From the NCBI GenBank assembly GCA_043819135.1, contig JBDRFG010000116.1, forward strand, positions 1 to 21,928: 21,928 nt of DNA, written 5' to 3'. The translations under genes and the position numbers were made by a program. The notes under the pieces are model-generated. The model was not told the DNA's origin. It saw only the letters and a list, made by a program, of their open reading frames with translations, and searched no databases. Of the stretch, positions 2,025 to 21,928 are shown piece by piece (within the stretch, counting starts at the first letter, position 1; each line of letters starts with the position of its first letter). Origin of the DNA: Candidatus Eiseniibacteriota bacterium. GTDB lineage: Bacteria; Joyebacterota; Joyebacteria; Joyebacterales; Joyebacteraceae.

Positions 2025-2206
2025 TCCCCCGACTTCGGTGTGAGTGCTGCGGAAAGCGACGGCTGCCTCCGTGGCGGCGTGGACAGAGCGCCACCGCGGG
2101 AGTGTGCTCGGCGTGCGCTGGGATGGCCGACCCGAACTGCAGCGGCTGTCAGAGCCGCCGCCGGGAAAGGCGCCTTCGGGATTCCATGGAGAGGAAAGCA
2201 TCTTGA
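2021..2206 (+). CDS. Small Cys-rich Zn-finger protein
   Basis: CECC, CSAC and CSGC motifs; coupled by GTGA and TTGA overlaps at both ends. Confidence 0.55.
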   Translation: MIPRLRCECCGKRRLPPWRRGQSATAGVCSACAGMADPNCSGCQSRRRERRLRDSMERKAS

Positions 2207-3063
2207 GCGACGACAGGCTCTGCCAAGCGTGCGGAAAGAATCTCGCCATGAAGCCGAAGGGGGAGGAGGGGGGCGGGATCTGCCGCGTGTGCATGGACGA
2301 GGCCGACAGGATCGCGAGCGCGCCGCCCCCGCTGGTGGTCCACTTCTGCGTGTTCACCTACGGCGGCGTCAACGAGGAGACCGTCGACTGCATCCTGGCC
2401 GAGTTCGGGATGGCCCCGGGCCTCGGGGTGCAATTCCTCTACGACCGGGTCAGCGGCGACGCCCTCATCAGCCGGTCGCGCTCCGTGGCGCTCTCTCGGT
2501 TTCTTCTGGAGACCGAGGCCGACGTTTGCTTCATGCTCGATCGAGACATCGTGTGCGTCGCCGGCGAGATCGTCGAGACCTGCAAGATCGCCCACCGTGA
2601 GAAAGCCTGCGTCGCGGGCCTGTACCCGAAGCGTACGCCGGGCATGGGGATGACGAGTCGGCTCACCAAGGACAACCCGGACTTCATCGTCGGGGAGGAC
2701 CGCCTCTGGCCGGCCGAGTACCTCGCCACGGGGTTCTTGGCAATCCCGAGATGCGCTCCGCGGGCCGTCGTCGACACCTTCTGCAAGACGAGCGTCGCTG
2801 ACAGCCTCCGCGTGCAGCCGTTCATCTACGCCCCCGACCCGGCCAGGGAAGCGTGGGATTTTTTTCGTCCCGTGGTCGCACCCTCGACGATGGTCAAGGG
2901 CAAGGGGGAGTATCTGAGCGAGGACTGGGCGTGGAGCCGCCGGGCCTCGTCGGCTGGAATCCGTCAGCTCGTCTGGTCGAAGCCGAGCCTCGTCCACTAC
3001 GGCAGGCAGGGGTTCGTGCCGGCGGACGGGCTCCCCGGGAGACTCCTGGTTTCGAGGACCTGA
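2203..3063 (+). CDS. GT-A fold glycosyltransferase (GT2-like) with N-terminal CxxC...CxxC Zn finger
   Basis: GGAGAGG RBS and TTG start. Motifs ALISRSRS..FL, FMLDRDI (DxD), AGLYPKR, ATGFLAI, YLSEDW and LVHYG are typical of phage GT-A enzymes. Confidence 0.85.
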   Translation: MSDDRLCQACGKNLAMKPKGEEGGGICRVCMDEADRIASAPPPLVVHFCVFTYGGVNEETVDCILAEFGMAPGLGVQFLYDRVSGDALISRSRSVALSRFLLETEADVCFMLDRDIVCVAGEIVETCKIAHREKACVAGLYPKRTPGMGMTSRLTKDNPDFIVGEDRLWPAEYLATGFLAIPRCAPRAVVDTFCKTSVADSLRVQPFIYAPDPAREAWDFFRPVVAPSTMVKGKGEYLSEDWAWSRRASSAGIRQLVWSKPSLVHYGRQGFVPADGLPGRLLVSRT

Positions 3064-3067
3064 GTTC

Positions 3068-3334
3068 CTACGCAGGACCCTGAGCGGAGTTTGCGCGACG
3101 GAGCAACTCGTCGGTGTTCGCTTCGATCTTGGCGAGGCGTTCGCCGTGCTGGGCAAGGTGTGCGAAGACGGTCTCGTGCATTCTCCGGCAGTCCATGGCG
3201 CTGACGGAATCTGGATGGTTGTGCTGGTCGAGCCGCTTGTCCACGTAGGTCCGAAGGGTCCACACTCCGGCGATAGCCGTACCCCCGAAGGTCAGGACAG
3301 CGAGGCCGATCGTGATGAGGCTGGACGTGGTCAT
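3068..3334 (-). CDS. Small membrane protein (N-terminal TM plus coiled coil), holin/XhlA-like
   Basis: Hydrophobic LITIGLAVLTFGGTAIAGVW followed by heptads (ERLAKIEANTDELL); ATGA-coupled to the upstream gene. Confidence 0.65.
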   Translation of the reverse strand: MTTSSLITIGLAVLTFGGTAIAGVWTLRTYVDKRLDQHNHPDSVSAMDCRRMHETVFAHLAQHGERLAKIEANTDELLRRANSAQGPA

Positions 3335-3669
3335 CGAGAACGACGTTGGACGAGATCAGAAAGGGCTTGCAGTATCCTTTCGAGCCGACGGAGCATCGGG
3401 ACCAGCAGGTCGACCGAACTCGGGATGACCATCACGGAGACGGTCTTGGCTCCGGTCGCCGCCGTCACGTAGATGTCAGTGCCCTTCGGCACGGTGAACG
3501 CGAGTTGACTTCCCGTCGGCAGGTAGAACGCGTCGGCCTGGTTCTGGCTGAATCCGACAAGTGCGATTGTTACCGCCTGGGAATGGACGATGACGTCGGA
3601 TTCCTCCGTGGCCCTGTACGCCAATTCGTACTTCCCAGCGACGGACGGGAACCTGCCTGTGAAGGACAT
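3331..3669 (-). CDS. Small beta-sandwich protein with C-terminal helix; possible vertex/minor capsid protein
   Basis: Alternating beta pattern (FYLPTGSQLAFTVPKGTDIYV). An extended -10 lies 6 nt before the ATG. Confidence 0.65.
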   Translation of the reverse strand: MSFTGRFPSVAGKYELAYRATEESDVIVHSQAVTIALVGFSQNQADAFYLPTGSQLAFTVPKGTDIYVTAATGAKTVSVMVIPSSVDLLVPMLRRLERILQALSDLVQRRSR

Positions 3670-3708
3670 TGCTGGACAGTACCATGCCCCAACGGTAAAA
3701 TTCCATCG
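3670..3708. promoter_or_regulatory. Back-to-back promoters for leaderless transcripts
   Basis: Minus: TGG-TACTGT(3681-3676)-6 nt-ATG 3669. Plus: TAAAAT(3696-3701)-7 nt-ATG 3709. Neither gene has an RBS. Confidence 0.6.
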
Positions 3709-3945
3709 ATGACGTTGCTGTCCAGCCTCCTGTCAAGCAAGAAGTTCAGGGCATTCCTGCTGCTGCTGGTCTGCGCGACTGTCCTCGCTGGGGTGGGGAA
3801 GATCGACTGGGATCAGTGGACGGCGTTCGCCGAGCATCTGGGCTACGTCTACATCGGGGGGCAGAGCCTCGTCGACTTCGGATCGCGGCTTCTGCGGCAG
3901 GCCGCGCCAGCGACGGAGCCGACCCCACCGGCGACGGAGAAGTAG
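3709..3945 (+). CDS. Putative holin
   Basis: SKKF followed by two hydrophobic segments and YIGGQSLVD, a pattern common in small phage holins. Confidence 0.7.
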   Translation: MTLLSSLLSSKKFRAFLLLLVCATVLAGVGKIDWDQWTAFAEHLGYVYIGGQSLVDFGSRLLRQAAPATEPTPPATEK

Positions 3946-8009: not shown

Positions 8010-9506
8010 CTACAGGAGCAGCAATGCGGCTGCGACGACGGCTGCGATGGAGAGGTACGTGCCTTTCCCGGCAGCCTCCTCCTTCGCCTTGGCGTCGGCC
8101 TTCTTCTTCTCCTTCTTCTTCTTCTCCTTCTTCTCCTTCTTCTCCTTCTTCTTCTTCTTCTTCTTCGCGGGCTTCTCGGCCTTGGGCAGAAGCTTCGAGA
8201 CCTCGGAAGCGGTGCACCCGGCGGCAATCAGAACTCTCTTGGCCACCATTATCGTTGCCGCGCTCGGGGTTCCTTTCCCGAGGAGATCAGCGACTTTCTG
8301 CTGGAGAAGGGGATTCGAGGCCAGCTTGCAGGAGGTGCTCGCTGCGAGCGTCGTGGCCGTCTTTTCGAGCTTCGCGATTTCGGCCCTCGCCTTGTCTTCA
8401 AGCGGCTTCACCGCGATGTCGAGTTCCTTCTTGAGGTCCTCGACGTTGATCTTGAAGCCGAGGCCGGTCGCACTCGCGGTCACGGGAGCGCCGGCGGCCT
8501 TCTTCTCGACGAGGGACTGGGGGGTTTTCCTCGCGGCCCGGTTCCGGATCTTCGCCATCGCGCAGTCGGCCATCGTGGCGTTGTGCCGCTCGGTCGACTC
8601 GCGCTGCTTGAGCTTGGCGACGGTCTCACGCATCACGGCGGCTTCCTGGGGGCGCCCGGCCCGCATGGCCTTCTTGATGTCTTCCGTCAGGCCCGCCCGC
8701 CACCGCTGCGCGACCACGATGCGTTCCTTCGCGGTTGCGGCGGCCCACGCGACCTTCTGCTTCGCGCGGACGACCTTGGTCGCCAGGTTGGCCTTCCCGA
8801 TGAACTTGAACCCAGCCGCAGCAACCTGCGCGGTCGCTCCGTCGCCGCTGGCCGGCGCCGCGGCGTAGGTCTTGCCGAGGATGACCTGCATCTTGTTGTT
8901 GCGGGCCATCTGGGTCGCCAAGACCTGGAGCTTCGCGTAGCGGACGGCGCGGCCGGCCGCAGCCGCTCGAGCAGCGTCGAGACGGAGGATCGCCGAGGAG
9001 TTCTTCGTCGGGGACCCTGACAGCTTCGCAATCTGCGTGTCGAGTTGCTTGACCCGGGCGAGGTAGCTTTGCTTCTGCGTCGCTGCCTTCTTCGCCACGG
9101 TCACGCGCTGCGTCAGCTTCACCTCGACGCGCTTGACCGTGGCCTGTGCGGCGTCGACGGACGGCGACGCCACGCCGAAGGGACCATCGGTCACGCCGAG
9201 CGCGCCATCGAAGGCCGACAGGCTCGACGCCCCGCTGATTCCGGCGTCTTCGTAGCGGTCGGCCCCAAACAGCGTCGCCTCGATCTGACCGAGGTCGCCG
9301 AAGAACGTCACCCCCTCGAGGATCTGAATCAGATCCCCGAGGAACTGCCCGGACGAATCCTGGGCCGAACGCTCCGTGACATCAGAGGGGACGCCGGCCG
9401 ACAGGAACGTTCCGGAGTTGCCCCCGTGTCGTCGTGCCAGCACATCCTCTGGAATGCCCCTGCGAGGATCTATGGTCGTCCCAAGGCTTTGGACGACCGT
9501 GCTCAC
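8010..9506 (-). CDS. Putative virion protein: acidic Gly-rich N-terminus, basic coiled coil, poly-K/E tract, C-terminal TM
   Basis: 498-aa ORF with strong GC3 bias, GTGA-coupled to the upstream gene; ends YLSIAAVVAAALLLL. Confidence 0.8.
   Translation of the reverse strand: MSTVVQSLGTTIDPRRGIPEDVLARRHGGNSGTFLSAGVPSDVTERSAQDSSGQFLGDLIQILEGVTFFGDLGQIEATLFGADRYEDAGISGASSLSAFDGALGVTDGPFGVASPSVDAAQATVKRVEVKLTQRVTVAKKAATQKQSYLARVKQLDTQIAKLSGSPTKNSSAILRLDAARAAAAGRAVRYAKLQVLATQMARNNKMQVILGKTYAAAPASGDGATAQVAAAGFKFIGKANLATKVVRAKQKVAWAAATAKERIVVAQRWRAGLTEDIKKAMRAGRPQEAAVMRETVAKLKQRESTERHNATMADCAMAKIRNRAARKTPQSLVEKKAAGAPVTASATGLGFKINVEDLKKELDIAVKPLEDKARAEIAKLEKTATTLAASTSCKLASNPLLQQKVADLLGKGTPSAATIMVAKRVLIAAGCTASEVSKLLPKAEKPAKKKKKKKEKKEKKEKKKKEKKKADAKAKEEAAGKGTYLSIAAVVAAALLLL
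8099..8166. repeat. 68-nt pure pyrimidine (TTC/CTC) trinucleotide tract encoding poly-Lys/Glu
   Basis: Directly visible in the sequence. Confidence 0.9.
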
Positions 9507-10099
9507 GTGCGGGACTCACCCGAATGGAGGACGAGGTCGCCGGTGAAGACCACGCCGACGACCTTCTGGTTCACCGAAGCGGTCCAGGCCCCGGGGCCGG
9601 TCGCCGTCGTGTCGACGGCGAAGGTCCCCTTGATGGCGTGGCCGCCGGAGAAGCGGTAGATGCCGGTATCGAACACCATGTCTGGCGCCGGCCCGAGCGT
9701 CGCGAGAAGCTCAGCCATCGAGATCAGGGAGGTGAACACGTCGAAGTTCCTCCCCTCCTCTCGCGCCTTGAACGTGATGCGTGCCCAGTTGTCCGGAATC
9801 TGGTCGGCTGCCGCTTCCTGGATGTAGCCTCGGATGCGGCGCAGAACGAAGTCCATCCCCTTGGGGATGGCGACGTCCACCGCTTGCAGCGAGACGACAC
9901 CGGCCGTGCTGATCGTCGCCTCCCACCGCAGATGGTCGACTCGGACCACCTCCGGCGGGAGATCGAGGACGTCGCGAATGTACCGTTTTGCTTCCCCGTC
10001 GGATCCACGCAGACGCTTTTCGAGCGCAGCGAGGATCTCGATCTCGGTCATTCCCTCGGTTCGAAGACCGAGTTGTCGGGCGGCGTCCTTGAGAAGCAC
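9503..10099 (-). CDS. Putative second single jelly-roll capsid protein
   Basis: All-beta pattern (IPKGMDFVLRRIRG, ITFKAREEGRNFDVF, IYRFSGGHAIKGTF, VGVVFTG); lies immediately downstream of the putative MCP. Confidence 0.55.
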   Translation of the reverse strand: MLLKDAARQLGLRTEGMTEIEILAALEKRLRGSDGEAKRYIRDVLDLPPEVVRVDHLRWEATISTAGVVSLQAVDVAIPKGMDFVLRRIRGYIQEAAADQIPDNWARITFKAREEGRNFDVFTSLISMAELLATLGPAPDMVFDTGIYRFSGGHAIKGTFAVDTTATGPGAWTASVNQKVVGVVFTGDLVLHSGESRT

Positions 10100-10118
10100 G
10101 GGCAGAGCCCTTCTGCGC

Positions 10119-10787
10119 CTAGCCCTTGGTGGCGGCGCTGCGGATCAGACCGTGGAGGTACAGGCGGACCATCACGTCGCCGGCCAGGGTCGGCGTCTGG
10201 CCGCCTGCCGCGGCCGAGAGACCGGCCGCGACCACGTCGGTCGAGGCCCAGGTCCGCTTGTGGTACGTGATCACGCCGTCGCAGTCGCTGCGGGGCGTGA
10301 TGAGCTGCTCGCGGGCCAGCTTGGCGGCGGCGGCGGTGGCCGGCGTGCCGATCGTCACGATCCCGGCGTCCGTCTCGACGGTGTTCCCGGCGAGGCCGTA
10401 GCCCGAGGGGAACTTGACGAGCGGGCCTTCCGCCACGTCCTTGCGGTTGAGCTGGAACATGAGGTACCCGTTCTCGGCGACCTTCTTGATGTCGGCCGGG
10501 GGGGGGACCGTGTTCCCGAGCGCCGTCGGGATGTGGACGCCGATGCGCTCGAGCCGCATCTCTTCGCCCTCGGGGATCTTCCGCGGGGTGGCGAAGTTCG
10601 TGTCCAGGATCTCCTTGTTGGTGAGGTCACGGAAGAAGTTCAACGTGTGGTTCAGCGCGACGGCGCCGTTGACGAGCATCGTGGTGTCCCACTTGTCGTC
10701 CTCGCGCCACTCGCTGATGTTGATCTTCTGCTGGGTGACGGAGTCCCAGAACATTCCAGGTTCGCCCTTGATCGCTACGAGTGCCAT
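10119..10787 (-). CDS. Putative major capsid protein, single jelly-roll type
   Basis: Strong RBS (AAGGAG) and extreme codon bias. Beta-rich pattern WDT...LNFF...DTNF...IP...RLERIGV...VRLYLHGL, which I recall from tailless-virus capsid proteins (not verified by search). Confidence 0.6.
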   Translation of the reverse strand: MALVAIKGEPGMFWDSVTQQKINISEWREDDKWDTTMLVNGAVALNHTLNFFRDLTNKEILDTNFATPRKIPEGEEMRLERIGVHIPTALGNTVPPPADIKKVAENGYLMFQLNRKDVAEGPLVKFPSGYGLAGNTVETDAGIVTIGTPATAAAAKLAREQLITPRSDCDGVITYHKRTWASTDVVAAGLSAAAGGQTPTLAGDVMVRLYLHGLIRSAATKG

Positions 10788-15193: not shown

Positions 15194-15213
15194 ACGACCT
15201 CACCGGGCGCGGG

Positions 15214-15247
15214 TAGGATGACACCGATGCTCGGTGAACTCGCACTC
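15214..15247 (+). repeat. Promoter + N-terminal tag module, copy 1
   Basis: TAGGATGACACCGATGCTCGGTGAACTCGCACTC; 32/34 identical to 21665-21698. Confidence 0.85.
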
Positions 15248-16042
15248 GGAAATGGCCTCGGGCTCGGTCCTCTGCTGCGCTGGCCAGGTGGGAAGGCGCG
15301 ATTCGCTGGCCGCGTCGTTCCGCGCATCCCGAAGCACCGAGTGTACTGCGAGCCGTTCTTCGGGGGCGGCGCGCTGTTCTTCGCCAAGCCGGAGGCGAAG
15401 GTGTCGATCCTCGGCGACGTCACGAAGAAGACGATCGCCTTTCACGACCAGGTGAGGCGCGGGGCGTTGCGGCGCTGCCGGGAGGGCGTCACGGTTGGGC
15501 CTGCGGCGTTCAAGAAGGGGGAGGACGGGAAGGCGAAGTCGGCCTGCGACGTGCTCGCGTGGACGATGTCCTCGTACCACGGGTCCATCACCCCGTCCGG
15601 CCGGTCGTCGAAGCACGGTGGACGTCAGAAGATGCGCCACCTGAAGGAGTACGAGGGGATGCTCCGGCGCGCGTTCCTCACGCTGGGCGACTTCGCCCGG
15701 ACGGTCTCGAAGGCGGATCGCCGCGGCGGGAGGGAAGCCTTCTACTTTCTTGACCCGCCATGGCCCGGTCTCCAGGGCTACTCGAAGAAGTACACAAAGA
15801 TGGGCGGGGCAGACGAGAAGGGGGCGACTCCGGCGCGCGTCCGGAAGGTCATGGACGACGTGAAGGGGAAGGTCTGGGTGGTCTACAACGACCATCCGGA
15901 GGTCCGGGAGGCGTTCTGCGAGGGGAAGAAGGGGAAGTGGAAGTGCTACGGCCTGAAGCAGAACGTGCAGCATGGGACGGGCGGGATGCAGAAGAAACCG
16001 TGGATTCTCGCCACGAACTACAACCTGAAAGGAAAACGCTGA
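15227..16042 (+). CDS. DNA N6-adenine methyltransferase, Dam/D12 class
   Basis: LLRWPGGK, YCEPFFGGGALFF (SAM-binding), FYFLDPPW (catalytic) and VYND...VRE.F. Confidence 0.9.
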   Translation: MLGELALGNGLGLGPLLRWPGGKARFAGRVVPRIPKHRVYCEPFFGGGALFFAKPEAKVSILGDVTKKTIAFHDQVRRGALRRCREGVTVGPAAFKKGEDGKAKSACDVLAWTMSSYHGSITPSGRSSKHGGRQKMRHLKEYEGMLRRAFLTLGDFARTVSKADRRGGREAFYFLDPPWPGLQGYSKKYTKMGGADEKGATPARVRKVMDDVKGKVWVVYNDHPEVREAFCEGKKGKWKCYGLKQNVQHGTGGMQKKPWILATNYNLKGKR

Positions 16043-16254
16043 TGCTCGGTGAACTTGCTCTCCAGAGTCTTTCGGGACGGGACGACTTCGACACCTGGAA
16101 GCGGAAGGTGTCCGCCCTCGTCTCCAAGAAGTACGGGGTCGAGGCCGACGATCTCCCCGACATCGACTACTACTCGCACTATGAAGATGGCATGTCCCCT
16201 GCTCAGGTTGTGACGGGGCCTCTCCGTCGGATGCTGCGTGAGGAAGGGTACTAG
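16042..16254 (+). CDS. Small acidic phage protein (70 aa) with MLGELAL tag
   Basis: AAGGA RBS and TGATG coupling; FDTW...DLPDIDY...EDGMSP. Confidence 0.75.
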   Translation: MLGELALQSLSGRDDFDTWKRKVSALVSKKYGVEADDLPDIDYYSHYEDGMSPAQVVTGPLRRMLREEGY

Positions 16255-16257
16255 GCC

Positions 16258-17337
16258 ATGTTCTCCGAGCGTGCCATGAGCAGCTTCGGCCGCGGGCTGC
16301 ACGGCGACCTCGACCCCGAGTACGTTCGCGCCTGCGTCGAGTGGACAGAGAAGATCCGCCGCTTCCCCCCGAAGTACGCGAAGAAGAAGAAGTGCTACAC
16401 GCGCTTCGACCGCGCCGACGAGGAAGCCCGCAAGCAGTCCGAGGCGAATCGAGAGACGACGGCGACCGTGACCGTCAACGGCAGGACGAAGACCGAGTGC
16501 AAGCGGGGCTCGTGCCACCGGCTCGGCGGGCTCGATGGCGTCCCCGTGTACCGCAACCCATGGGCGATCGGGCTCGCGGTCGTCGGGGCGGTCGCGTACG
16601 CCAACAGCCGACGGAGCAAGGGCAAGGGGCTGCTGGACCTCGGGGTGTTCAAGGCTGGCGTCGAGCCGGTCATCCGAGAGATCGCCGCTGCCGTGCGTCG
16701 GGTCGCGGTCGAGTTCGGGTTCCCGCCGGTCCCGACAGATGCCTACGTCACGGCGCACCTGATCCTGTCGAGCGGGTGGTTCGACTCGACGCTGGACAAG
16801 CCGCCCCACTACAACTTCTCCGGGGTGAAGGCGGGGAGTTCCTGGACTGGCCCCGTCGTCTTGCTGCCGACGGTCGAGTACTACACCGATGCCGAGATCG
16901 CCCGGGCGAAGGCGAAGCCGAGCGGGACGCGGGGCTCGTTCAAAGAGATGGCACCGAAGGCAGGTTCGACGGTGTCAGGGAAGAAGCGGGTCCAGATCTA
17001 CGACGACTTCAGGTCGTTCGGATCCCCGGACGCTGCGCTGCGCGACTATTTCACCCGACTGACGTCACAGTCGAAGTACAGCGAGAGCGGCGAGAAGCTC
17101 CGGACGGCGGCGCACGACTACATGGCCCAACTCGGCAAGGACGGCTGGTACACGGCTGACACCGACGTCACTCAGCGGGCATGGCGCTCGATCGTGGACG
17201 GCAGCCGCCTCCGCGGCATCCTCGGGCCTGAAGATGAACGTGGGAAGTCCACACCGGATCCTGTCAAGGCAGGCGTCGGGGTCGGAGTCGTCGGGACGGT
17301 CGCGGCGATCGTGCTCGCGCTCGCGCTCGGAGATTGA
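16258..17337 (+). CDS. GH73 glucosaminidase/FlgJ-like domain protein with two TM segments; catalytic Glu apparently substituted
   Basis: AHLILSSGW, YNFSGVKAGSSWTG, TVEY, FRSFGSPDAALRDY and GWYTAD. Confidence 0.85.
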   Translation: MFSERAMSSFGRGLHGDLDPEYVRACVEWTEKIRRFPPKYAKKKKCYTRFDRADEEARKQSEANRETTATVTVNGRTKTECKRGSCHRLGGLDGVPVYRNPWAIGLAVVGAVAYANSRRSKGKGLLDLGVFKAGVEPVIREIAAAVRRVAVEFGFPPVPTDAYVTAHLILSSGWFDSTLDKPPHYNFSGVKAGSSWTGPVVLLPTVEYYTDAEIARAKAKPSGTRGSFKEMAPKAGSTVSGKKRVQIYDDFRSFGSPDAALRDYFTRLTSQSKYSESGEKLRTAAHDYMAQLGKDGWYTADTDVTQRAWRSIVDGSRLRGILGPEDERGKSTPDPVKAGVGVGVVGTVAAIVLALALGD

Positions 17338-17342
17338 TCCTG

Positions 17343-18128
17343 ATGCTCGCCGAGGCAGCCCTCCAGTCCATCTCCAGACGCGGCACCGTGGTAGTCGGAG
17401 CGAGACTGCTGCACGGGTCTGCGGGGACCGAAAAGCGGCCGTGGTACAGGAACCCATGGGCCTGGGCGGGAGCGGCGCTCGTCGCCCTCGGGGCCGTCGG
17501 GGGCGGCACCGTTGCCGTCGTGGGCTTTCCCAAGGTCTTCAGCCTCGTGACCGGGGCCTACCGCTCGGCCGAGCAGTGGGCGACCGACCGTGGCCAGCAG
17601 ATCCGATCCGCATTTCATGTGAAACCCGATTCGCTGAAGCCTGCAGGAAGCATCAGGTCCTCGACGATGTCGCTCGACGAGTGGAACCGGAAGAAGCTGG
17701 AGATCCTGGCCCCGCAGTACCGCGGGCGGTTCGAGAGCTTCTTCCGTGCGGCGCAGGCCGCCGCACGCAGCCACGGGTCCGCTCTGCTGATCTGGGATTC
17801 GACCAGGACGCTCGAGCGGCAGCTTGACCTCTACCGAAGGGGGCGCGTCGACGACCAGACGAAGGTCACGGATACGATGGCTTCGCTGCACCAGTTTGGG
17901 ATGGCGATTGACGTGCTGATCGCTGGCCCGAACAACGCGCCGTCGTGGTCGTCCCCCGGGTGGTACACCACCGAGGTCCTTCCGCTGGCCGCACAGCACG
18001 GACTCGAGTCGCTGTACCTGGCGCGCGGGAAGGACAAGCCGCACATCCAGGTCCCCGAGGCCGAGTGGCCGGCCGTCGTCGCGTCGGCACGGGAACAGAT
18101 CAAGGACGACTTCCCAGGAGTCGCGTGA
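17343..18128 (+). CDS. M15-family peptidoglycan endopeptidase (L-Ala-D-Glu type) with N-terminal TM
   Basis: RTLERQLDLYRRGR, SLHQFGMAIDV (SxHxxGxAxD) and DKPHIQ. Confidence 0.88.
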   Translation: MLAEAALQSISRRGTVVVGARLLHGSAGTEKRPWYRNPWAWAGAALVALGAVGGGTVAVVGFPKVFSLVTGAYRSAEQWATDRGQQIRSAFHVKPDSLKPAGSIRSSTMSLDEWNRKKLEILAPQYRGRFESFFRAAQAAARSHGSALLIWDSTRTLERQLDLYRRGRVDDQTKVTDTMASLHQFGMAIDVLIAGPNNAPSWSSPGWYTTEVLPLAAQHGLESLYLARGKDKPHIQVPEAEWPAVVASAREQIKDDFPGVA

Positions 18129-18145
18129 ACCCACAGAAGGACACC

Positions 18146-18787
18146 ATGTCAACGAAGACTCCATGGATCATTGCCGCCGCCGCCGTTGTCACGGGTCTCC
18201 TCCTGAATTCCAGCGCGTCAGCGAGCACCAAGTCGCCCCCGAAGAAGCCCGCGCCAAAGAAGCCGCCCCCCGCCCCCGCCGCGCCATCCTTGGCTCCGTT
18301 CACGCCCACCAGCGCAAGCTATAGCTTCGCGTGCCAAGCCGCGCGCATCGCCTTCGAGTCGATCCGTGCAGCAACTCAGGCAGCCAACCCCAGGAAGCTG
18401 CGCCCGCTGTCCTCGTCGACCATCGACAAGCTGCGCCCGCTGTTCCCCAAGCTCGACCTGGGCCGCGTCCGGGTTGCCGAGAACGCCACAATCCCGGCGC
18501 GGGAGATCTCCAAGCTCAACATCCCTGGAGCTGCCAGCGACATCGACGCCATGACCTTCGGGTACGACATCTACATGAAGGGAAAGGCGAGCACAAAGCT
18601 ACTCGTCCACGAGTGCGTTCATGTTGATCAGGTCCGTCGCTACGGTGGGCGCGACAAGTTTGCCTGCGCCTACGGGAACGGGGTGGTCCGCGGAGGTATG
18701 ACCTACCGTGGCAACCCGCTGGAGGTCGAAGCGTACGGGTTCGCGGACAAGGCGATGACCTACCTCTGCGGCAAGGGGCTCGTATAA
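18146..18787 (+). CDS. HExxH metallopeptidase-like protein (DUF4157-like) with N-terminal TM and Pro/Lys linker
   Basis: AAGGA RBS; LDLGRVRV, AMTFGYDIY, LLVHECVHVDQ and NPLEVEAY. Confidence 0.82.
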   Translation: MSTKTPWIIAAAAVVTGLLLNSSASASTKSPPKKPAPKKPPPAPAAPSLAPFTPTSASYSFACQAARIAFESIRAATQAANPRKLRPLSSSTIDKLRPLFPKLDLGRVRVAENATIPAREISKLNIPGAASDIDAMTFGYDIYMKGKASTKLLVHECVHVDQVRRYGGRDKFACAYGNGVVRGGMTYRGNPLEVEAYGFADKAMTYLCGKGLV

Positions 18788-18796
18788 CCGAGCGGA

Positions 18797-18824
18797 CGAT
18801 GTGATAAGGTCGGTTAGCACCACG
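18797..18824 (+). repeat. dif/Xer-like 28-bp site 1
   Basis: CGATGTGATAA-GGTCGG-TTAGCACCACG. Confidence 0.6.
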
Positions 18825-18848
18825 GGGATAACCACGAAAGGAACGACG

Positions 18849-19433
18849 ATGGGACTCGCGGAACGCGCTCTCGGACTTCCGACGTACACCGGACAGGTCG
18901 AGGCCACGCTCGGGTTTGAGAAGCGCGATCCAGCCGGACGGTGGGCCAGGGCGCTGGGCGGGACCACGCCCTCGCACTTCGGAAGCTTGTGGATCACGAC
19001 CATCGTCACCAGCCAACTTGACGTCCACGCCGGTGGTGGAATTCTTCTGGAACACCGAGGCGTCAACGTCCCGATCTACTGCTTTAACGACTCGTTTCGC
19101 TGTTCCGGCAAGAAGCTGGCGGTGGTGTTCGACTGCGAGCAGCCCGGCAACATGGACGACGAGGAGTTCCAGGAGATGGCCGATCGCGCGAAGAGCGCCG
19201 GGTTCGACGCGCGGAAGGTGACGGTCACCCGAGGTGGACGCCTACCAGGCGGCGCTCGGGCCACGGGCGACGAGGTGGTGATCAGGGCTCTGCTGCCCAG
19301 CCCGCTCAGGGCGACCGACATCGACCCTCCGATCCACAAGGCGAGCACCGGAGCGGGAGCGTCGATCGGGGACAGGAACGACGACTCCGACGACGGACCG
19401 ATCTGGATGGACGTGCGCTGCCATGTCGTGTGA
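18849..19433 (+). CDS. Hypothetical cassette protein with LAERALG tag
   Basis: AAAGGA RBS; lies between sites 1 and 2. Confidence 0.75.
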   Translation: MGLAERALGLPTYTGQVEATLGFEKRDPAGRWARALGGTTPSHFGSLWITTIVTSQLDVHAGGGILLEHRGVNVPIYCFNDSFRCSGKKLAVVFDCEQPGNMDDEEFQEMADRAKSAGFDARKVTVTRGGRLPGGARATGDEVVIRALLPSPLRATDIDPPIHKASTGAGASIGDRNDDSDDGPIWMDVRCHVV

Positions 19434-19440
19434 CCGTCGA

Positions 19441-19468
19441 GAGGTCGATAACCCTGATTAGGACCATG
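19441..19468 (+). repeat. dif/Xer-like 28-bp site 2
   Basis: GAGGTCGATAA-CCCTGA-TTAGGACCATG. Confidence 0.65.
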
Positions 19469-19503
19469 GTCGAAATGGCATTAGAACCACGAGGAGGAAC
19501 CCC

Positions 19504-19929
19504 ATGTGGTGGATAATCGGAATCGTAGTCGCGGGCGGTGCGTGGGCGCTGACGCGGAAGACGGACGAGGACGACGAAGCGCCGAAGCGCATCGCCCCCA
19601 AGGGCAAGCGTCCGAAGTACGAGCCCCCCCCCGATCCGAGTCGACGCCCGGAGATGATGGTTCACATCCAGGACGCGCTTCGTCTCGAGGCCGGAACGAA
19701 GGTCTATGTCGGCGGTCGGTATGCCGCAAGGGGCGATGGGGAAGCAGGACGGACGTGGCGAATCGTCCAGGGCAAGTCTGCCATGTGGGTGGACGGAAGA
19801 CTCCCGGCTGGAACCCGAGACGGGGCGACCATTCGTGTCACCGGGACGATCAAGGTCAGGAACCCGGGGACGCGCTCGGAGACACGGTACATCCTGGCAT
19901 CGGAGGTCGCGCGGAGCGTCGGGAAGTAG
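19504..19929 (+). CDS. Membrane-anchored protein with OB-fold-like beta domain (paralog A)
   Basis: GAGGAGG RBS, N-terminal TM, GTKVYVGGRY...IRVTGTIK. Confidence 0.8.
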   Translation: MWWIIGIVVAGGAWALTRKTDEDDEAPKRIAPKGKRPKYEPPPDPSRRPEMMVHIQDALRLEAGTKVYVGGRYAARGDGEAGRTWRIVQGKSAMWVDGRLPAGTRDGATIRVTGTIKVRNPGTRSETRYILASEVARSVGK

Positions 19930-19933
19930 CCGG

Positions 19934-19961
19934 CCGTGCGATAACGTGGATTAGGACCACC
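19934..19961 (+). repeat. dif/Xer-like 28-bp site 3
   Basis: CCGTGCGATAA-CGTGGA-TTAGGACCACC. Confidence 0.65.
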
Positions 19962-19985
19962 GGATAACCACGAAAGGAACACAGC

Positions 19986-20426
19986 GTGAAGTGGATAATC
20001 GGACTTGTGGTCGCGGCGGCCGGCGCGTGGGCGCTGAAGTCGCGCAGCGACCGCGCGGAGGCATCCCCGAAGCGCCCGACCGGCCCCAATGGAAAGAAGC
20101 CGAAACAGGCTCCTTCCATCAGCGTCCACGCCGCGCGGCAGCTTCCTCACGGGACGAAGGTCACCGTCTTCGGACAGTACGCGGCCGAGGGAGGGCAGTG
20201 TCGGGGGGGGAAACCGACGCCCGAGGCATGGATGCTCGTCGGGCCTGCCCCCTCCTTGGGAGGAGCCCTCCCCGTCTGCATCTGGGTCGTCGGGATCTCC
20301 TCTGACAAGTTCCGCCACGGTGTCGGCATCAGGATCGTCGGGACGATCAAGTCCGTCAACGTCGGCACTCGCTCGGAACTGAAGGTCCTCCACGCCGTCG
20401 GATTCGAGCTCTTCAGGTCGAAGTAG
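19986..20426 (+). CDS. Membrane-anchored protein with OB-fold-like beta domain (paralog B)
   Basis: AAAGGA RBS and GTG start; aligns by eye with 19504..19929 (WIIG, AWAL, GTKV, YAA.G, GTIK, GTRSE). Confidence 0.8.
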   Translation: MKWIIGLVVAAAGAWALKSRSDRAEASPKRPTGPNGKKPKQAPSISVHAARQLPHGTKVTVFGQYAAEGGQCRGGKPTPEAWMLVGPAPSLGGALPVCIWVVGISSDKFRHGVGIRIVGTIKSVNVGTRSELKVLHAVGFELFRSK

Positions 20427-20430
20427 CCGA

Positions 20431-20458
20431 CGGTGCGCTAATGTCCATTAGGACCACT
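20431..20458 (+). repeat. dif/Xer-like 28-bp site 4
   Basis: CGGTGCGCTAA-TGTCCA-TTAGGACCACT. Confidence 0.65.
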
Positions 20459-21055
20459 TCGCTCGCCGAGGCTGCCCTTGGGGCGCGTGGAACGATGCGT
20501 GCCGAGGAGAGACGCTTCCTGCAGCAGGCTCAAAATGAACGCACCCCAACCGAGGCGATGGACGGTCAGGGAATCGTCGAAGCCGATGAGGATGAGTGGC
20601 TTATGGTCGGAGAGCGAATTCCGCGCGTCTTGTTCGGCGCACTGCCGAACAGCCTCCGAACCCACCACCTGGCGCTGCTCGGTCTGACGCCCTTCCCGCA
20701 CCCGCATGTATTCGGACTCCACGTCACTAGCGATCCGGAATACTGGATATACAGGTTGAGCGAGGACTACGACTACACCCTCGACGATGCGAGGGTCATC
20801 GAGATCGAGGTGTTGCCCGGCGACCGCCTGGCCTACGACGTGCAGTACATGACCGACCCTGACTCCGGCGAAAAGGCCAGCAGCAGCGTCCTCCTAACCA
20901 CGCGGCGAGTTCTGAGGCTAGGGACGGACTTCTTCGTGAGCGACGATGAGGCGATGTACGTCAGGATGGCCCGGGAGCGCGCGCAGGAGCCCTCCGAGGA
21001 GGACTCGCCGTACGCCATCAGCCAACCTCCCAGTTGCTCACGCCGTCACAGGTGA
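20441..21055 (+). CDS. Hypothetical acidic protein with LAEAALG tag; start uncertain
   Basis: 204-aa ORF with protein-like composition; first ATG lies inside site 4; 38-bp convergent overlap with the next gene. Confidence 0.65.
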   Translation: MSIRTTSLAEAALGARGTMRAEERRFLQQAQNERTPTEAMDGQGIVEADEDEWLMVGERIPRVLFGALPNSLRTHHLALLGLTPFPHPHVFGLHVTSDPEYWIYRLSEDYDYTLDDARVIEIEVLPGDRLAYDVQYMTDPDSGEKASSSVLLTTRRVLRLGTDFFVSDDEAMYVRMARERAQEPSEEDSPYAISQPPSCSRRHR

Positions 21056-21620: not shown

Positions 21621-21677
21621 GGGCGCATACTACCCCGACCGTGGACGCGGCGCGAGTGGTCGGATAGGATGACACCC
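21621..21677. promoter_or_regulatory. Divergent leaderless-type promoters
   Basis: Minus: TAGTAT(21632-21627)-6 nt-GTG 21620. Plus: TAGGAT(21665-21670)-7 nt-ATG 21678. Confidence 0.6.
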
Positions 21678-21698
21678 ATGCTCGCTGAACTCGCACTC
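21665..21698 (+). repeat. Promoter + N-terminal tag module, copy 2
   Basis: TAGGATGACACCCATGCTCGCTGAACTCGCACTC. Confidence 0.85.
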
Positions 21699-21928
21699 AG
21701 ATCGCTCGCCGCCGAGTGGAACGCCAACGTCCCGAAGAAGTGGCGCGCGAAGTTCTGGGGCCTGCCCGACAGCGCGGTGTGGCTCGGCATCGGCAAGGAC
21801 GGGAAAGCCTACGCCCGCGTCGGGAAGGACATCGTCCGCGCTCCTCACGGGTCCGCGTGGCGCTGGGAAGGATTCGATCGCGAGAGCACCTGGACCGAGT
21901 TGGAGCGCCAGGGCGTGCTCCCGCTGGA
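21678..21928 (+). CDS. Hypothetical protein with MLAELAL tag, truncated by the window edge
   Basis: Open to the end: MLAELALRSLAAEWNANVPKKWRAKFWGLPDSAVWLGIGKDG... Confidence 0.7.
   Translation, partial: MLAELALRSLAAEWNANVPKKWRAKFWGLPDSAVWLGIGKDGKAYARVGKDIVRAPHGSAWRWEGFDRESTWTELERQGVLPL

Follow-up and report, generated by a model that had tools for sequence, protein, structure and literature searches.

A repeated dif-like site between small genes of a putative tailless bacterial virus that probably carries its own Xer-like recombinase

The window, a stretch of DNA of 21,928 nucleotides, carries four directly repeated sites with a TAA-N6-TTA core, each at a gene boundary, and a second contig carries 13 more. 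From sequence comparison we lean towards reading these sites as double-stranded cassette junctions for an Xer-like recombinase that the virus itself encodes and that would tolerate mismatched spacers. This reading is supported by the 17 co-oriented sites with conserved arms and a low-information 6-bp centre. It is also supported by the conserved Xer-like enzyme, the lone dyads of the relatives, the chance-level spacers and the stop codons inside the sites.

The two arrays and the anatomy of the sites

The four 11-6-11 sites listed in the first-pass annotation were read again in the window, and their coordinates, sequences and spacing (644, 493 and 497 bp) are all correct (Table 1). The annotation also placed a stop codon less than 10 bp before each site, and the stops do end 9, 7, 4 and 4 bp before the left arms. 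The four spacers all differ, as had been claimed. A pattern search of the window gave the four sites against a mean of 0.26 matches per shuffle, and none of 100 shuffles had four. The degenerate extra site has a matrix score of 14.1, compared with 29–34 for the four sites. The proposed likeness to E. coli dif holds for the TAA-N6-TTA core. It fails for the XerC arm, where the quoted alignment was one base out of register; aligned on TAA by hand, the E. coli and viral arms match at 5 of 11 positions.

Table 1. Coordinates of features in the window and of lone dyads in related viruses
Feature	Position	Strand	Remarks
Gene following capsid gene	9503..10099	-	homologues at the equivalent place in relatives
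Single jelly-roll major capsid protein	10119..10787	-	222 aa; 174 homologues
Two endolysin-like genes	16258..18128	+	glucosaminidase; M15-type peptidase
Gene preceding site 1	18146..18787	+	weak eCIS-core domain match; closes the Dam-methylase/lysin run
Site 1	18797..18824	+	spacer GGTCGG
Leader after site 1, with ribosome-binding site and start	18825..18852	+	near-identical to the leader behind one C76 array site, 27 matching bases
Unit 1 gene	18849..19433	+	194 aa; family not found; profile-scanned as a 210-aa frame
Site 2	19441..19468	+	spacer CCCTGA
Degenerate extra site	19464..19491	+	GAA replaces TAA; right arm intact; 23 bp behind site 2
Unit 2 gene	19504..19929	+	141 aa; orphan; hydrophobic N-terminus and probable OB fold (lead only)
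Site 3	19934..19961	+	spacer CGTGGA
Unit 3 gene	19986..20426	+	146 aa; paralogue of unit 2 at 38% identity
Site 4	20431..20458	+	spacer TGTCCA
Gene behind site 4	20441..21055	+	204 aa with the start at 20441, 186 aa if the in-frame ATG at 20495 is the start; family not found
Lone intergenic TAA-N6-TTA dyads of relatives	G043:C12 14032; G044:C1 16387; G046:C1 14012; G047:C1 88673		each at most 50 bp from an IHF-consensus box

The 13 further array sites all lie on contig C76. These are co-oriented and lie 142–623 bp apart with small genes between them, and in each array the sites score best on one strand. Array units hold single genes, apart from one C76 unit of 489 bp that apparently holds two short ORFs. 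The whole 2.69-Mb assembly has 26 TAA-N6-TTA dyads, and 19 of these fall on the window contig and C76; 0.06 would be expected in the 39 kb of viral contigs. One full intergenic site lies outside the array, at C76:1438. A dyad inside the C76 recombinase gene misfits the matrix and was left out of the site set. On C76, 11 of the 13 genes upstream of sites stop within the site (six at TAA, five at TAG), and several right arms carry a ribosome-binding-like AGAGG or GAGG shortly before a start.

Two arms around a 6-bp spacer with a TAA/TTA core are found in 17 of 17 array sites, this layout being the search criterion. The arms are informative out to 9–10 bp, and the six central bases carry little information; the consensus of the right arm is TTAG[AGC][AG][CG]CAC. 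All 17 spacers are distinct (0 of 136 pairs identical, best pair 5/6). Mean spacer identity over the 136 pairs is 1.74/6, against 1.62 expected from composition. It is 1.67/6 in the six pairs with homologous leaders (above the 99.9th shuffle percentile), and the strongest leader pair, window site 1 and a C76 site, has 27 leader bases in common and only 2/6 in the spacer. Since spacer identity stays at chance level despite shared leaders, spacers and the leaders behind them are not inherited together. Leaders common to units end at the spacer. Sites 3 and 4 are the sole pair with a homologous upstream flank, and their spacers agree at 3/6. Both types of left arm are found with both types of right arm. 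Left-arm and right-arm identities are correlated (rho 0.30, over non-independent pairs), and the arms are therefore not freely shuffled.

The four genes of the window array region had no match at a meaningful level in Pfam, PHROGs or NCBIfam. By their sequences, units 2 and 3 appear to be a duplicated site-plus-gene unit, and their products are probably membrane-anchored OB folds, which we offer as a lead only. When 59 candidates were scored against the unit 2 protein, its sole homologue was itself. The gene behind site 4 has no closing site. Elsewhere in the window, unrelated genes at 15210–15250, 16025–16065, 17340–17366 and 21661–21701 have a common leader and N-terminal codons of the M-L-G/A-E-L-A-L type. 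The best leader pair among them is 90% identical over 41 bp, and the leader common to 15210 and 21661 is site-free.

The virus, its probable recombinase and its relatives

The element had been called a virus at first reading, and the single jelly-roll capsid protein in the window bears this out. The capsid model has a pLDDT of 90, and its top Foldseek matches are SPV1 and SH1 (probability 0.98–1.00; E 1.4e-3 to 1.1e-2, just above E 0.001). On this modelled fold, the window element is predicted to be a tailless (single jelly-roll) bacterial virus. The endolysin-like genes indicate a bacterial host. The gene following the capsid gene probably encodes a second capsid protein. The 39 kb of viral contigs showed no packaging ATPase.

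In the 2.69-Mb bacterial bin G000, the window makes up contig C116. Contig C51 overlaps its start by 141 bp, C76 and C116 have no overlap, and the three make up the 39 kb. We infer that C76 and the window belong to one virus, because the motif and a near-identical leader are common to both and because the capsid profile matches once in the bin. In addition, C76 (recombinase, transglutaminase) and C116 (capsid gene and its neighbour) hold complementary halves of a core block that is contiguous in relatives. The array on C76 also includes an HTH_17 gene. In tetranucleotide usage the three viral contigs correlate with the remainder of the bin at 0.955–0.963. Among 38 control contigs these values would rank in the lower quarter, and the binned organism is therefore a candidate host only. 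An archaeal host was rejected (no mcrA; XerC/XerD and tmRNA present). A crude scan of the bin saw no CRISPR array. At positions 746–4938 of C51 and 2044–3063 of the window, the virus has an HU-like gene, an amidase gene and two genes for GT2 glycosyltransferases that contain TPR repeats; the adjoining window ORF has weak matches only.

The first-pass annotation had allowed for a recombinase outside the window. C76 indeed encodes, at 3030–3887, a catalytically complete tyrosine recombinase of 285 aa, on the same contig as the longer array and about 4 kb from it. Its nearest solved structures are XerA/XerD. The catalytic R, K, H-x-x-R, H and Y are intact in all eight aligned members (C76 and seven relatives), and 8/8 long relatives have a homologue. 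In an NCBIfam scan the C76 enzyme falls below every cut-off; the best model is XerA, at 123.8 vs 220, and against the IntI family (TIGR02249) it scores 55.4 bits vs a cut-off of 265. A recombinase search of viral contigs returned four distant, unrelated integrases only. In one relative, the provirus in G042, the family recombinase lies about 27 kb inside, and a separate 437-aa ORF at the tRNA-Asp att repeat reads as integrase-like by its motifs. The conserved recombinase is therefore probably not the integrase. This 62-kb provirus (G042:C1 143649–205261) sits at tRNA-Asp with 97-bp bounding repeats, and a second copy, about 94% identical, is found on G042:C48.

In the intergenic region at C76 1378–1628, half-sites match at six places, the full dyad of 1438 is present, and a TTGACA hexamer is enclosed by a 13-bp inverted repeat; the region is a candidate native recombination or control region. 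The half-sites cluster around the hexamer at other spacings, upstream of the recombinase operon, and some C76 half-sites sit between a ribosome-binding site and a start codon. Directly upstream of the recombinase gene (C76 1619–3033, + strand) are two short ORFs like the capsid N-terminus and a 192-aa capsid-related ORF, which may be paralogues in decay or fragments that interfere with assembly.

Scanning with the capsid motif yielded 13 distinct loci, with ten relatives among them. The family sample consists of eight long sequences, whole or full provirus, of 62–102 kb, five of them with terminal repeats, plus a 40-kb partial second copy in G042. The relatives' circular genomes (65–102 kb) carry the conserved Xer-like recombinase and the transglutaminase. 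None of the eight long relatives has a TAA-N6-TTA array, and none of the 19 genes tested from the arrays and their flanks has a homologue on the relatives' contigs. One or two TAA-N6-TTA dyads are present in six of the eight; G041 and the circular G045 have none, and both have the recombinase. The raw N6 dyad count in the relatives is 8 and is not higher than at the other spacer lengths (2–11). Extended palindromic arms are found at 4/8 N6 dyads vs 0–2 for other spacer lengths.

Four lone intergenic dyads lie close to a box that fits the IHF consensus (Table 1). Five such boxes were picked by eye from 17 motif matches in the relatives. A TAA-N6-TTA lies within 50 bp of four of the five, and the other spacers gave one N10 and one N12. 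The shuffle probability of this association is about 1e-7, with windows chosen after the boxes had been seen. No IHF-like box is found in the virus's own contigs, and the arms of the relatives' dyads agree with the viral array arms only in TAA/TTA. By sequence, the lone dyad may be the native (candidate resolution) site of the family recombinase. Scans with the array-site motif gave lone matches in unrelated DNA: two in viral contigs, one in metagenomes and none in 40 other genomes. Searches with the capsid protein revealed no close relative among viruses. They gave nothing in 30 other genomes of the binned phylum and one new match among 400 in the phylum of G042. That new capsid-bearing genome has no dyad in the stretches examined. 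Five alignment-based locus searches did not find a conserved stretch.

Several relatives have repeats of other kinds. On G045:C5 there are 13 dispersed perfect CTGAA-N3-TTCAG dyads, from 1744 to 59681, several of them at gene boundaries, and one overlaps the stop of the gene following the capsid gene; a second dispersed repeat in G045 is GC-rich and about 30 bp long. In the complete 102-kb relative G048, a hairpin-rich leader of about 70 bp occurs eight times (C1 72100–75850), always ahead of a small gene. The centre of its dyad, unlike the spacers of the array sites, is conserved in 7/8 copies. A common leader precedes four starts in G044, and at G044:C1 78377–86128 and G047:C1 7036–10066 a repeated leader with N-terminal codons precedes several genes. 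In the complete relative G046 the capsid gene is present in two tandem copies (8984–10401 of locus L034). A tRNA with a CUA anticodon, possibly an amber suppressor, was called on the viral contig G041:C10 (11786–11862).

Recombination, regulation and folding as readings of the sites

If the sites are recombination junctions, the family recombinase would normally act at one TAA-N6-TTA dyad per genome, probably resolving dimers of the circular genome and not integrating it. The site would have multiplied in the lineage of the window virus, and the arrays would be stacks of small gene cassettes. A unit would consist of right arm, leader, gene, left arm and spacer, which would put the junction at the right edge of the spacer. 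The invariant TAA/TAG would supply a stop codon to incoming genes. Because every spacer differs, units would be added or exchanged by one of two routes: a single strand exchange that replication then resolves, as happens in integrons, or a rare exchange between matching spacers of co-infecting genomes. With no two spacers alike, the array would in addition be protected from deletions. In the accessible part of PMC4792948, two arms around a 6–8-bp spacer are the layout of tyrosine-recombinase sites, and integron integrases carry out a single strand exchange that replication resolves. A bolder and tentative proposal is that the virus has made a gene-capture platform out of the site at which its own Xer-like recombinase resolves the genome. 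Double-stranded 28-bp sites would then recombine with no need for identical spacers, and genes would be added, swapped or lost singly. We are similarly doubtful about its corollary, that such an integron-like platform arose separately from both IntI/attC and host XerCD, in a little-described family of large tailless bacterial viruses.

The recombinase reading is weakened by several observations. None of the 19 genes has a homologue, no relative has an array, and no rearrangement was observed; no cassette homologue was found in another context (relatives' contigs; unit 2 among the 59 candidates). The raw N6 counts are not raised, G041 and G045 have no dyad, and the IHF-like boxes were chosen by hand. 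Half-sites overlap translation starts, the arms are correlated, and C76 does not overlap the window contig. Finally, pdif recombination needs identical or near-identical spacers, on the portion of PMC13141974 that was available.

The first-pass annotation had allowed that the sites might use host Xer. As pdif-like substrates of host XerC/XerD they would have the expected 11-6-11 layout with a TAA/TTA core, and the binned genome encodes both proteins. In the family of the binned host, however, the canonical XerD arm, TTATGTAAAC, is near-invariant: 20 of the 30 other genomes have it, at 21 loci in all, and a dif that matches it with one change lies on contig C170 of the bin. (An earlier candidate for the host dif, on C146, was dropped in favour of C170 after the family comparison.) The viral sites lack this arm. 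In the comparison with host dif that had been called for, made by hand, the viral arms match the family dif arms at 4–6 of 10–11 positions in either orientation. The viral sites are also all direct repeats, whereas C and D types alternate in dif modules, as far as the text of PMC13141974 at hand goes. Even allowing that the true host might differ from the bin and have a different dif, we consider host Xer very improbable.

Regulation is the main competitor of the recombinase reading, and we regard it as possible, if less probable. The sites would be operators of a dimeric viral repressor, similar to stoperators, or part of a repeated regulatory leader. Under this alternative, to which we give the same minor weight, ordinary recombination between leaders, homologous or of the annealing type, would enlarge and reshuffle the arrays in the manner of PeSL, and the spacers would drift. 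An operator role had been named at the outset as the main alternative, and it gained some support from the repeats in relatives and the half-site clusters. The dispersed dyads of G045, the leaders of G048 (unrelated to the sites) and G044, and the site-free common leader at 15210 and 21661 in the window all speak for it. So does the C76 cluster of half-sites at the TTGACA hexamer upstream of the recombinase operon, overlapping translation starts. Two genes are candidate regulators: the HTH_17 gene of the C76 array and, at 877–1047, a weakly CopG-like gene. Precedents for operators and leaders are found in the available portions of PMC2839356 and PMC9283540.

Several findings argue against regulation. 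The spacers are at chance identity even next to 27-bp identical leaders. Full sites occur only in the two accessory arrays and at C76:1438, and the window's structural operon and lysin genes have none, a distribution judged on 39 kb that are probably under half of the viral genome. A promoter scan, which covers the sigma-70 type only, gave no score at any site. A like TAA-N6-TTA core stands alone in relatives that have no array. The arms reach 9–10 bp, which is long for a simple helix-turn-helix half-site. As for the half-site cluster on C76, it would fit a repressor and would also fit accessory sites to which the recombinase binds, of the kind known from TnpI and attI.

The sites could also act as single strands, as attC-like hairpins, or as RNA-level signals (termination, re-initiation, processing) at gene junctions, which we think highly unlikely. 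The stops inside the site in 11/13 C76 units and the AGAGG/GAGG in several right arms would suit such a role. The fold test covered the four window sites. All eight foldings (both strands) were within the shuffle range (z −1.16 to +0.61), that is, no better than shuffles, and an attC-like fold was rejected on these grounds. The core is symmetric, the four window genes stop ahead of their sites, and the recombinase is far under the integron-integrase cut-off (55 of 265 bits).

Should the recombinase reading be true, the virus would encode a cassette system that works without attC hairpins and without host Xer. Such a system would be a natural test of how an Xer-type enzyme can drop the spacer-identity rule, which is regarded as the step from Xer to the integron integrases. 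With a single enzyme of 285 aa and 17 natural sites that differ in their spacers, the idea is directly testable, and the set might serve as a multi-site recombination tool. If the operator reading is true, the array is a lineage-specific regulatory one. Under either reading, the data outline a family of 65–102-kb single jelly-roll bacterial viruses with a core recombinase.

Comparison with known systems

On its sequence, the array appears to act like an integron or an array of dif modules, yet it belongs to neither. No such array in a virus was found in the literature, in a search with incomplete coverage of subscription papers; nor was a described family of 65–102-kb single jelly-roll bacterial viruses with a core recombinase.

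The array resembles the Acinetobacter pdif/dif modules (XerCD) in having gene modules between 11-6-11 sites with a TAA/TTA core and variable spacers. Recombination between pdif sites, whose C and D modules alternate, goes through identical or near-identical spacers in the section of PMC13141974 available. In contrast, the viral sites are all direct, lack the XerD consensus arm (compared with the candidate host), have 17 distinct spacers and have a candidate enzyme that is virus-encoded. As in integrons, the units are co-oriented and mostly single-gene, stops fall within the site, and a tyrosine recombinase is on the element, given the inferred link between C76 and the window. Unlike integrons, the window sites have no attC hairpin, the sites are simple and of 28 bp, the recombinase is not IntI and lies about 4 kb from the C76 array, and neither attI nor Pc was identified.

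The PeSL cassettes of T4-type phages likewise have repeated intergenic elements among orphan genes in a variable region, and leaders common to unrelated genes. PeSL consist of a sigma-70 promoter and a stem-loop terminator and shuffle genes by recombination between the repeats (PMC2839356, from the part available). The viral sites have neither such a promoter nor a stem-loop, and what they conserve is a split dyad whose centre is random. The stoperators of mycobacteriophages also occur as many oriented copies at gene boundaries. They are asymmetric repressor sites spread over the phage genome, according to the available text of PMC9283540, whereas the viral sites are split dyads confined to two arrays and one intergenic copy. 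The virus has the single jelly-roll capsid fold of SPV1 and SH1. It differs from both in its bacterial host with endolysins and in its 65–102-kb circular relatives, which carry an Xer-like recombinase and a transglutaminase.
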